From assembly GCA_965250285.1 (NCBI GenBank), contig OZ252299.1, forward strand, positions 1,152,001 to 1,216,000: a stretch of DNA of 64,000 nucleotides, given 5' to 3'. The position numbers were made by a program, and so were the translations under genes. The notes below the pieces were generated by a model. That model was given only the letters and a program-made list of their open reading frames with translations, was not told the origin of the DNA and ran no database searches. Of this stretch, positions 1,574 through 61,068 are shown piece by piece. Source of the DNA: Myxococcota bacterium (GTDB lineage Bacteria; Myxococcota_A; UBA9160; UBA4427). The first letter of the stretch is position 1. Every line of letters starts with the position of its first letter.

Positions 1574-3832
<2,259 letters not shown>

Positions 3833-3835
3833 CCA

Positions 3836-4483
3836 TCACGCGGCCCGGCCGCGGATCAGCTCCTCGTAGAACCCCATCAGGATCGACACCGTCACGCCGA
3901 CGACCCAGTTCGGGCCATCGACGAGGCAGTAGTGCGCGTGGAGCGCGTCGGCGCTGCGGCGGCGCAGCTCGTAGGCATCGGCGCTGAACACTCGGTCGAG
4001 CGGGATCTCGACGATCTCTTCGACCTCGCGCGGATTCGGCCGAAGCTCGAGCGGGGGCTCGAGGACGCCCACGTACGGCGCGATGTGATGACCGCTGTGC
4101 GAGACGTAGTCACCCAGTCGACCGAGGACGCGGACGTCGCTCGGCGCGACCCCGATCTCTTCGTGTGTTTCGCGCAGCGCCGTCGCCTTTCGGTCGGCGT
4201 CGGTCGCATCGGCGTGGCCGCCGGGAAAACAGAGGTGGCCCCCCGACGAGAGCGCGGGATGTCGTCGCGTGAGCAGCAGCTGCAGCGCGTCGTCGTACGC
4301 GACGATCGGGATCAGGACCGCCGAAGGCCGTGCGTTCTTGCGCGTCGCTTCGGGCAGGGGCTGCTCATGGTGGAAGTTGCGAAGAGGTCGCTGGGCGCGG
4401 CCCACGTCGCTGTCGAAGTGGGCTGCGAGCGACGCGAGCGTCTCGCGCAGCGGCGGGTGGTCGAATTCGGAGTCGATCCCCAT
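3836..4483 (-). CDS. CoA pyrophosphatase, Nudix (NudL/Pcd1) family
   Basis: SAVLIP...GHLCFPGG...ALRETHEEIG Nudix box and the NPREV motif. Confidence 0.85.
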   Translation of the reverse strand: MGIDSEFDHPPLRETLASLAAHFDSDVGRAQRPLRNFHHEQPLPEATRKNARPSAVLIPIVAYDDALQLLLTRRHPALSSGGHLCFPGGHADATDADRKATALRETHEEIGVAPSDVRVLGRLGDYVSHSGHHIAPYVGVLEPPLELRPNPREVEEIVEIPLDRVFSADAYELRRRSADALHAHYCLVDGPNWVVGVTVSILMGFYEELIRGRAA

Positions 4484-6986: not shown

Positions 6987-7814
6987 TCAGTCGAGTCGGC
7001 GGTTCAACCCGAAGCGGTCTGCACCGCGCAGCATCACGGTCGGCGGCGGTGTCGGATCCCAGATCGTGGGCTCCCAGGCCGTCATCGGAATGCGCACGCG
7101 TTGGTCGGGGGCGCTGAAACGCAGGCCCATGGCGGTGCGGGCTTCGTCGGTCGGGTTGTCCGATGCATGCCACAAGTTGCCGTTGAACACGATGAACTCG
7201 CCGTCGTGCACGGGTGGGCGCACGATCTCTGCCTCCGGTTCGACGGTGCGCGCGAGCTCGAGCGCGCGGTCGTCGTTCTGCAGCTCGAGCATCGTCACTG
7301 CGCCTGTCGAGAGATCGTCCTCAGGGCGACGGCCGTAGCGATGCGAACCGGGCATGATCTTGAGTGCGTTCTCGGGCGTGGTGTTCGCGGCACCCATCCA
7401 CACGCTGACGCCACTCACGTGATGGAACTCGTTGTCGCTGTGCCAGTGAAGGCGCCCGCCGGCGTCCTGGGCGAAGCAGATCGTCGCCCACAGCATCACG
7501 TCCGGCCCGATCAGCTCGGCGACGCGATCGGCGATGGCGTCGCGCTGGGCCGTTTCGAGCAGGCGGGGCGACAGCGCGTGCAGGCTCTGGAACCAGGGCG
7601 TATCCGCGTAGCAGCTCTCTTGATCAGCGTAGATGCGCTCGAGGTCCTCGCGCGATGGGTAGAAGTATCCGCGGGTGCGCGCGAAGGCGGCCTTCAGCTC
7701 GGGCTCCAGCGCGCGAGCTTGGCCCGGCTCGAGCAGGGGGAAGGGCCCGATCCAGCCGGCCTCGTCGAAGTGGCGACGTTCGTCTTCGGTCAGCCGAGTG
7801 GCCGGCGTGCTCAA
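6987..7814 (-). CDS. Phytanoyl-CoA dioxygenase (PhyH) family Fe(II)/2-oxoglutarate dioxygenase
   Basis: HWHSD...PGSH...WHAS...R motifs; start overlaps the ispH stop. Confidence 0.82.
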   Translation of the reverse strand: MSTPATRLTEDERRHFDEAGWIGPFPLLEPGQARALEPELKAAFARTRGYFYPSREDLERIYADQESCYADTPWFQSLHALSPRLLETAQRDAIADRVAELIGPDVMLWATICFAQDAGGRLHWHSDNEFHHVSGVSVWMGAANTTPENALKIMPGSHRYGRRPEDDLSTGAVTMLELQNDDRALELARTVEPEAEIVRPPVHDGEFIVFNGNLWHASDNPTDEARTAMGLRFSAPDQRVRIPMTAWEPTIWDPTPPPTVMLRGADRFGLNRRLD

Positions 7815-20984: not shown

Positions 20985-21061
20985 TCCGCCGTGACCGGCG
21001 CTCGAGCGCGTGCATGCCGCCGGTCCGCCGTGACCGGCGCTCGAGCACGCGCACGCAGCCG
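20985..21061. repeat. 39-bp tandem duplication (2 copies)
   Basis: tccgccgtgaccggcgctcgagc occurs at 20985 and 21024. Confidence 0.85.
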
Positions 21062-26174: not shown

Positions 26175-26397
26175 CAAGCGCTCAGCACGCCCTCGAGCGA
26201 GCACGCCCTCGAGACAGACGACGGCGTCGACGCGAGTCGGCATGATCCACGCACGCTTGCGTTCAAGCGCCGAGCATACGCTCGAGACAGACGACGGCGT
26301 CGACGCGATTCGGCATGATCCACGCGCGCTTGCGTTCAAGCGCCGAGCACGCCCTCGAGATAGACCACCGGGTCTTCGCGGATCGGCATGAAGTACA
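26175..26397. repeat. 73-bp tandem repeat derived from the metF 3' end
   Basis: Units start at 26198, 26271 and 26344, with a partial unit at 26175; the third unit is the metF coding end. Confidence 0.9.
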
Positions 26398-47860: not shown

Positions 47861-47908
47861 CTCGTCGAGGCGCGGCCTCGGCGACTCGTCGAGGCGCGGC
47901 CTCGGCGA
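47861..47908. repeat. Perfect 24-bp tandem duplication of a hairpin in the rpsL-rpsG spacer
   Basis: ctcgtcgaggcgcggcctcggcga x2. Confidence 0.9.
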
Positions 47909-58555: not shown

Positions 58556-59061
58556 TGTCCAAGCTCATCAAGTCATCGATGATCAACCCGAACGACTTCG
58601 AGCTGAACGACCGGGTGATCCACATCAACCGCGTCGCGAAGGTGGTGAAGGGCGGTCGTCGCTTCAGCTTCAGCGCGCTCGTCGTCGTCGGTGACGGCAA
58701 CGGCGTCGTCGGCGTCGGGCTCGGCAAGGCGGGAGAGGTGCCCGAGGCGATTCGCAAGGGCGTCGAGAAGGCGCGCCGCTCGCTGATCCGGCTGCCGTTG
58801 GTCGACGGGACGCTGCCTCACGAGGTGATCGGGCGCTTCGGCGCGGGCAGCGTGCTGATGAAGCCCGCTTCGGCCGGTACCGGCGTGATCGCGGGCGGAC
58901 CCGTGCGCGCCGTGGTCGAGACGGCCGGTGTGCACGACATCCTCACGAAGACGCTCGGGACCAACAACCCGCGCAACGTCGTGAACGCCGTGATGGCCGG
59001 CCTGCAGAGCCTGCGCTCGCCCGAAGAGCGGCTGGCGGAGCTCGGAAGGAGGGCGTCGTGA
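58555..59061 (+). CDS. rpsE: 30S ribosomal protein S5
   Basis: [11 protein letters not shown] and GTGVIAGG motifs. Confidence 0.98.
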
Positions 59062-59250: not shown

Positions 59251-59688
59251 ATGTTGGATCGACTCAGCCCCAACGCCGGATCCCGCAAGCCGCGCAAGCG
59301 CGTCGGCCGAGGTCCCGGTTCGGGCAAGGGAAAGACCTGCGGGTCGGGCGTGAAGGGGCAGGGCACCCGCTCGGGTGGCAACACCCCCGCCTGGTTCGAA
59401 GGCGGACAGATGAATCTGCTGCAGCGCGTACCGAAGCGCGGCTTCACGAACATCTTTCGCAAGGACACCGAGGTGGTGAACGTCGGTGCGCTCGCGGTGT
59501 TCGGTGACGGCGCGACGGTGGACGCGAAGGCACTCGCCGAGCGCGGTCTGATCCGTGGCTCGGGTTGCGCCGTGAAGCTGCTCGGCGAGGGCGATGCCCC
59601 GAAGAACCTGACGGTCAAGCTCGATCGCGTGAGCGCTGGTGCGCGCACGAAGATCGAGTCGGCCGGCGGTACGGTGGAGCTGGTCTAG
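59251..59688 (+). CDS. rplO: 50S ribosomal protein L15
   Basis: GRGPGSGKGKT, FEGGQ and PKRGF motifs. Confidence 0.98.
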   Translation: MLDRLSPNAGSRKPRKRVGRGPGSGKGKTCGSGVKGQGTRSGGNTPAWFEGGQMNLLQRVPKRGFTNIFRKDTEVVNVGALAVFGDGATVDAKALAERGLIRGSGCAVKLLGEGDAPKNLTVKLDRVSAGARTKIESAGGTVELV

Positions 59689-59757
59689 TGCCCGTTCGTC
59701 GGTTGAACATGGAGTGGGTCTAGTGCCCGGTCGTCGCCTGAACATGGAGTGGGTCTA

Positions 59758-59760
<3 letters not shown>
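59676..59760 (+). repeat. 35-bp tandem repeat encoding two 11-codon mini-ORFs between rplO and secY
   Basis: GGAG..GGTCTAGTG at 59676, 59711 and 59746; mini-ORFs at 59688-59723 and 59723-59758. Confidence 0.9.

Positions 59761-61064
<1,304 letters not shown>

Positions 61065-61068
<4 letters not shown>

Follow-up and report, generated by a model that had tools for sequence, protein, structure and literature searches.

How can the junction between two tightly coupled genes of an essential operon take in extra sequence and still keep the second gene coupled to the first? The question is raised by the rplO-secY junction of the window, by which we mean the whole stretch of 64,000 nt of DNA analysed here, part of a genome (G000) of 6.25 Mb with 69% G+C. 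In this junction, two mini-ORFs lie between the genes for ribosomal protein L15 and SecY, linked to each other and to both genes by overlapping stop and start codons. The closest named records, as judged by SecY, are MAGs labelled Myxococcota (74%) and Deltaproteobacteria (69%).

Structure of the rplO-secY junction

The rplO ORF (59251..59688, plus strand; Pfam Ribosomal_L27A, E 6.8e-15) ends with a TAG at 59686-59688, and its product is 92% identical to the L15 of a genome of the same genus (G001). The essential secY gene (59758..61068, plus strand; Pfam SecY, E 2.1e-112) starts with GTG 59758, which is homologous to the start used by relatives, as indicated by alignment of the SecY N-terminus with those of 29 of them. 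Pfam assignments give the usual gene order of the spc operon: S5, L30, L15, SecY and adenylate kinase. The neighbouring junctions are also tight: the ORF before rpsE overlaps rpsE by 1 nt (58555), rpsE and rpmD (S5/L30) overlap by 4 nt (59058-59061), and the secY stop and the adk ATG also by 4 nt (61065-61068).

A repeat search and TRF both located an array at 59675..59779 (plus strand), composed of three in-register 35-nt copies of the junction, each with an rplO tail, a stop/start overlap and a secY head. The repeat search placed the copies at 59675-59709, 59710-59744 (86%) and 59745-59779 (69%), and TRF reported a period of 35, 2.5 copies, 90% matches and a score of 139. The working start of secY falls within the third copy. 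The 15-nt sequence GGAGNNGGTCTAGTG occurs three times in the window against 0.08 occurrences expected, and none of 100 shuffles gave three.

The preliminary description of this DNA had reported a junction GGAG-x-GGTC-TAGTG repeated three times at a 35-nt period, two 11-codon mini-ORFs chained by TAG/GTG overlaps from rplO to secY, and a separate GGAG before each start; the sequence at 59676-59760, the translations and the coordinates agree with all three statements. Mini-ORF 1 (59688..59723, plus strand; unit U1, 59688-59722) reads VPVRRLNMEWV*, and the last base of its TAG is the first of the GTG that follows. Mini-ORF 2 (59723..59758, plus strand; unit U2, 59723-59757) reads VPGRRLNMEWV*, and its TAG shares 1 nt with the GTG of secY. 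Both consist of a GTG, given here as Val by codon and read as M when it serves as initiator, followed by ten codons and the TAG. The resulting TAGTG overlaps (-1) are at 59686-59690, 59721-59725 and 59756-59760. Shine-Dalgarno-like GGAG motifs occur on the plus strand at 59676..59679, within Val-Glu codons of the rplO tail, at 59711..59714, and at 59746..59749, the present putative ribosome-binding site of secY; they are placed 8 nt 5' of GTG 59688, GTG 59723 and the secY GTG, respectively. The 3' end of the 16S carries ...CACCUCCUU, the anti-Shine-Dalgarno, so that GGAG would be able to pair as a Shine-Dalgarno sequence. Every link in the chain shows the features of coupled genes, namely a -1 stop/start overlap and a Shine-Dalgarno sequence at 8 nt.

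U1 and U2 are identical at 32 of 35 positions, and the three differences are GTT/GGT (Val/Gly), CGG/CGC and TTG/CTG. Alignment of the units confirmed the earlier remark that the last two are synonymous; they affect neighbouring bases (59702-59703) and may represent a single event. Three differences carry no statistical weight, and an argument from the synonymous changes to selection on the peptide has no power; the peptide is not conserved in a 38-nt form of the unit (see below).

We found no promoter-like or terminator-like sites in 59300-60100, no match of the region to Rfam families at E up to 1, and no inverted repeats inside the array in the repeat search. Likewise, the minimum free energy of the RNA at 59640-59810 was not better than that of shuffled sequences (z = -0.13; 84 of 200 shuffles folded at least as well). 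In an exploratory calculation, a high energy, 11.6-13.8 kcal/mol, was predicted for opening the start region of secY, which weakly supports a dependence of secY on upstream translation. The predicted opening energies of constructs with 0-3 units spread over about 2 kcal/mol, values too rough to give the direction of an effect. In RNA runs X18-X23, 5-11% of the sampled words were present.

Local gene ends as the source of the units

We compared both units with a parental chimera made of secY nt 1-22 and the last 13 nt of rplO. U1 was identical to this chimera at 24 of 35 positions, with 13/22 in the secY part and 11/13 in the rplO tail, and U2 at 26 of 35, with 15/22 and 11/13, respectively. 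At fixed position, the probabilities of such agreement are 1.3e-4 for 15/22, around 3e-3 for 13/22 and 4.3e-5 for 11/13. Judged from these alignments, each mini-ORF is a SecY N-terminus (MLERIQN...) fused to an L15 C-terminus (...VELV*), both having diverged since. The units differ from their parent at 9-10 of 35 positions, and the third-position divergence between G000 and G001 is 0.30-0.34.

The search of both strands of the 6.25-Mb genome returned no further copies of the unit with up to eight mismatches. Among the 6.2 million windows of the plus strand, only two match U2 at 26 or more of 35 positions, and these are U1 and U2 themselves. A unit made of a diverged local secY head and a local rplO tail indicates local tandem duplication and not a mobile element. 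The selfish repeat considered as an alternative in the preliminary description is therefore not supported, given the copying from local flanks and the lack of another genomic copy within eight mismatches.

A direct overlap is the ancestral junction

A search with L15 matched 34 of 40 relatives and returned loci for 29 of them, to which the junction counts refer, the other five matches lying outside these counts. None of the 29 has a unit, and the stop of rplO and the start of secY always overlap or abut: 25 junctions are of the NTGA type (4-nt overlap), two overlap by 1 nt, and in two the TAG directly abuts the GTG. The junction of G001, from the same genus, is a TAGTG with a 1-nt overlap and zero units. 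These comparisons show the direct overlap, with no unit, as the ancestral state in the order.

In 27 of the 29 relatives, by hand count, a GGAG falls within the final 30 nt of rplO, mostly in the Val-Glu codons of the L15 C-terminus, indicating that the ribosome-binding site of secY is normally embedded in rplO. In distant phyla, the rplO-secY spacers are apparently non-coding, with the rplO stop and SecY residue 5 lying 4-216 nt apart at the 75 of 80 loci scored (L15 was missing from the flank at the remaining five).

Copy number and unit length differ among close relatives

Comparing the number of units among strains had been suggested beforehand, and it turned out that relatives carry 0, 1 or 2. 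Contigs derived from short reads of three runs of one study (X1-X3), possibly the source samples, contain two units and show no differences from the window at depth 33-43; they cover 59450-59998 in X1 and X2, and 59450-59973 in X3. In a contig from a marine metagenome run (X4), exactly 35 nt (59696-59730) are missing, and the one unit that remains agrees with U1 at the first variable site and with U2 at the second and third; this one-unit form is a single contig of 378 nt at depth 4.6, with seven differences in 360 aligned nt. In a contig from a sediment run (X7), exactly 70 nt are missing, which leaves no unit; this form is again a single contig (316 nt, depth 4.8, 14 differences). Run X6 covers only 59710-59867 and so has at least one unit, and runs X5 and X8 gave no cover over the array.

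The exact 22-mer of the unit junction had no matches in the metagenome contig collection, and a scan of metagenome contigs with a 31-mer from the secY head retrieved two. One of them (L112), 99% identical to G001, contains no unit. The other (L113), with flanks 92.1% identical to the window and 92.9% to G001, contains a single 38-nt unit: a TAGTG, a 12-codon frame reading VIARGMHIMELV*, and then TAGTG and secY. Compared with a chimera of secY codons 1-8 and the final 14 nt of rplO, this unit is identical at 29 of 38 positions. It differs in length from the window units by exactly one codon, and both lengths, 35 and 38 nt, are 2 mod 3. Four derived substitutions are common to the L113 unit and the window units (of 9 and 10 changes, respectively), as compared with around 0.9 estimated for units of independent origin; it is possible that the 35-nt and 38-nt units arose from independent duplications.

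Taken at the level of these contigs, the array is shown to differ in copy number among close relatives, with states of zero units, one or two of 35 nt, and one of 38 nt. The sites are too few to put the gains and losses in order. With copies arranged head to tail and in numbers that differ between related strains, the array has the properties of a minisatellite or VNTR.

Duplicated junctions elsewhere in the genome

TRF identified 262 non-redundant tandem arrays with periods of 15-150 nt in G000, 27 of which have co-directional open frames of high GC3 on both sides. Classifying these 27 by hand, we recognized 11 as duplicated stop/start overlaps, and nine of the 11, rplO/secY included, have a relay-compatible period. 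Against the one third expected, the probability of nine of 11 by chance is about 1e-3 for this post hoc classification by hand, so we regard the excess of relays among duplicated overlap junctions as suggestive. Over all 27 arrays, the period mod 3 was 2, 0 and 1 in 12, 9 and 6 cases, respectively, which is not significant alone. Arrays with relay-incompatible periods also occur between co-directional genes in G000. The formal relay-chain pattern, in a loose definition, was dropped as a statistic: it occurs 187 times genome-wide and is common by chance at 69% G+C, so that the pattern alone is no evidence.

Between ruvC and ruvA (L114:751-1026; G000 3650-3925), 3.5 copies of 80 nt with 97% matches form three mini-ORFs of 27 codons that all have an upstream GGGGGAG and an ATGA overlap; formally, either strand of this array makes a relay. 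Between a Pterin_bind (folP-like) gene and a gene for a CdaA-type diadenylate cyclase (L116:507-872; G000 1592906-1593271), 4.8 copies of 77 nt form four mini-ORFs of 26 codons with GTGA overlaps. Both arrays are absent from G001. A third array, between EthD and M1 peptidase genes (L117; G000 1102860-1102929), contains two 35-nt units that are 100% identical, and its match in G001 is one gapped piece. The other arrays are 83 nt × 2.2 between a short-chain dehydrogenase-like gene (weak Pfam match) and a luciferase-like oxidoreductase gene (L115; G000 582828-583009), 41 nt × 4 between an unnamed gene and a methyltransferase gene (L118; G000 4687506-4687668, minus strand), 43 nt × 4.4 with an 8-nt overlap (L119; G000 5104182-5104369, minus strand), and two short arrays with units of 26 and 20 nt. 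Pfam analysis of five junctions gave families on both sides at three of them (ruvC/ruvA, folP/cdaA and EthD/M1 peptidase); the other two had a downstream family, with a weak SDR match upstream of the luciferase-like gene and no upstream family at the last junction.

A probable relay filtered by reading frame

We consider it rather probable that the two 35-nt junction copies act as 11-codon relay frames keeping secY coupled to rplO, and, with similar confidence, that the array, rather than being a dedicated regulator, is a by-product of the frequent short tandem duplications that has passed a filter on frame and is tolerated. The first unit would have been made by a slippage-type tandem duplication, which in its simplest form comprised 38 nt, that is, secY codons 1-8 and the last 14 nt of rplO. 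After this old duplication, the free interior of the unit would have diverged at a roughly neutral rate. In the lineage of the window, the deletion of one codon would have been followed by a recent re-duplication, giving U1 and U2, and in other lineages the unit would have been lost by deletion between direct repeats.

Ribosomes terminating on rplO would restart at GTG 59688, read 11 codons and stop at the overlapping TAG, and the same restart at GTG 59723 would carry them on to secY. De novo initiation at each GGAG would provide an added entry point. Since the junction itself was copied, a ribosome-binding site, a start and an overlapping stop come with each unit, and a period of 2 mod 3 then makes a relay automatically and without design. 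With such a period at a -1 or -4 overlap, the extra start would read the frame of the downstream gene and then the open frame of the upstream gene until the overlap stop. With a duplication of any other length, ribosomes would cross the secY start in the wrong frame, and only frame-keeping lengths should thus survive at coupled junctions. One third of random junction duplications are perfect relays, and since the relay frame comes automatically with that third, the presence of a relay is weak evidence of function.

Against the relay, de novo initiation of secY would be possible at the GGAG directly before it, and every relay step starts at GTG. Coupling, on the other hand, is most efficient at distances of -4 to +3 nt and decreases 3- to 10-fold by about +40 nt, according to the available part of the source (PMC12548453). 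As it falls with distance, an untranslated gap of 70 nt is expected to weaken coupling and a relay is not.

The peptides themselves very likely have no function of their own: VPGRRLNMEWV and VIARGMHIMELV are not conserved, and the residues they share are those fixed by the start, Shine-Dalgarno and stop signals. If the mini-ORFs are translated, they would be clear cases of newly born translated ORFs, with a sequence free to drift and a constrained frame.

The locus thus suggests that a tightly coupled junction in an essential operon can absorb an insertion, with coupling likely kept. We propose a simple rule, by which a duplication at a -1 or -4 overlap survives when its period is 2 mod 3, and this rule may explain MIRU-like relay repeats with no need for a mobile element. 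The natural series of zero, one and two units, together with the 38-nt form, provides material for determining the restart efficiency of each relay step before secY.

Alternative explanations

The alternative that fares best, although we judge it rather unlikely, is that the array is a neutral spacer, with irrelevant mini-ORFs, secY initiated mainly de novo at its own GGAG and GTG, and 70 nt of extra sequence simply tolerated. The full Shine-Dalgarno sequence and start retained directly at secY would fit this explanation, as would the apparently non-coding spacers of other phyla and the relay-incompatible arrays between co-directional genes of G000. Nevertheless, a tolerated spacer does not account for the direct overlap kept in 29/29 relatives of the order, or for two unit forms that are both frame-keeping and exactly one codon apart; the nine relay-compatible periods in 11 duplicated overlap junctions (hand count) and the high opening energy predicted for the secY start region also argue against it.

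We think it unlikely that the number of units has been selected as a rheostat setting the ratio of SecY to ribosomal proteins, with each step passing on a fraction of the ribosomes or adding new ones. Unit numbers of 0, 1 or 2 among close relatives are compatible with a rheostat, although such variation is expected of any minisatellite, and we found no link of copy number to any trait. A precedent exists in the rnc-fpg1 VNTR of M. tuberculosis (VNTR3239), whose repeat length correlated with downstream expression, measured as mRNA, in the available part of the report (PMC2734929). However, similar arrays at unrelated junctions, such as ruvC/ruvA, folP/cdaA and others, point to a mutational process and not to a device specific to SecY. 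We also regard as improbable the broader proposal that duplication of overlap junctions is a general, frame-filtered route to chains of translated mini-ORFs in operons, and that the reversible copy number at rplO-secY (0, 1, 2) is a heritable dial on the ribosomes entering secY. If this were true, natural populations would hold standing variation in the stoichiometry of SecY to ribosomes.

The insertion of a mobile, MIRU-like element at the secY start codon is very unlikely. The layout resembles that of MIRUs, whose ORF ends overlap the flanking genes in the available text of two sources (PMC3184786; PMC12548453). Nonetheless, the genome has no second copy of the unit at up to eight mismatches, the exact unit-junction 22-mer is absent from the metagenome collection, and the unit derives from its local flanks. 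It is still less probable that the mini-ORFs encode a functional leader, that is, an arrest or sensor peptide regulating secY. Lying just before a secretion gene, the mini-ORFs bring secM/secA to mind; however, the peptides have 11 residues and no signal sequence, they differ between the 35- and 38-nt units except at residues set by the start, Shine-Dalgarno and stop, and they are absent from 29/29 relatives. Finally, tandem repeats are error-prone in assemblies, yet an assembly artefact is hardly credible here, since the units differ at three positions, contigs from three runs (possibly the source samples) reproduce the array exactly at depth 33-43, and a homologous unit occurs in the related contig L113, from another source.

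Relation to known systems

The closest parallels to the relay that we favour are the MIRUs, or MIRU-VNTRs, of mycobacteria, reportedly described by Supply et al. in 1997. The rplO-secY array, made of short tandem units within a polycistron, shares several properties with them.

In the available parts of three sources (PMC3184786; PMC12548453; PMC2734929), MIRUs are 40-100-bp units located between operon genes, variable in copy number and with ORF ends that overlap the flanking genes; they are assumed to maintain translation of the polycistron or to modulate it, and form a family dispersed over about 40-50 loci, with hints of transposition. As far as these texts allow comparison, the rplO-secY units are likewise tandem, with ORF ends overlapping the neighbouring stop and start and with a strain-variable copy number. 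Their lengths, 35 nt and 38 nt in L113, are just under the MIRU range. Unlike the dispersed MIRUs, the rplO-secY unit is unique in its genome and copied from local gene ends, and its overlap is -1 (TAGTG) as opposed to the -4 given for MIRUs. Instead of the target duplication and imperfect terminal inverted repeats that are signs of MIRU transposition, we found a copy of the flanks and no inverted repeat. Uniqueness and origin from local gene ends thus indicate that the array, which would work like a MIRU, is none.

Strict coupling was found for 13 of 14 overlapping gene pairs in the part available of one study (PMC6728339), and coupling by termination-reinitiation at overlapping pairs is also treated in PMC10666635, likewise available in part. 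The array resembles such pairs in that the stop overlaps the next start at all three links, with the Shine-Dalgarno sequence in the upstream frame. By contrast, the known cases in these partial sources consist of a single junction between two real genes, whereas here there are two extra predicted links through 11-codon frames with no conserved product.

VNTR3239, at rnc/fpg1 of the M. tuberculosis complex, is similar in that its two co-directional genes, a few bp apart in relatives, have been separated further by strain-variable tandem repeats (PMC2734929, available in part). It differs in being a complex array of 279-358 bp with units of 55 and 79 bp, and a frame-exact relay is not described in that part of the source. 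In addition, short upstream ORFs are described, in the available part of PMC12548453, as able to 'deliver' ribosomes to a coupled downstream gene. The role proposed here for the mini-ORFs is of this kind, as they would have no product of their own and would bring the ribosome to the next start; unlike those ORFs, which that text places in 5' leaders, they are repeated and lie inside an operon, between two coupled genes. Our search of open-access papers and preprints found no description of locally derived junction duplications acting as relay ORFs.

Other repeats in the window and genome

The window contains three further tandem repeats. One at 26198-26391 (minus strand; 73 nt × 2.7, 86% matches) copies the 3' end of a gene together with its stop codon, and its period, 1 mod 3, does not make a relay. 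The others are duplications of 39 nt (20985-21061; 2.0 copies, 89% matches) and of 24 nt (47861-47908; 2.0 copies, 100% identical).

TRF also revealed a dispersed family of related units of about 119-146 nt, organized in short tandem arrays at eight or more loci of G000 (5764131-5764670, 1539235-1539521, 1096153-1096425, 5069502-5069767, 5018971-5019266, 4146877-4147116, 2718539-2718769 and 7164-7424). Unlike the junction arrays, this family looks genuinely interspersed. A much longer array, at G000 3941570-3945914, contains 23.4 copies of 186 nt with 83% matches and a period of 0 mod 3, and is probably a gene for a repeat-domain protein.
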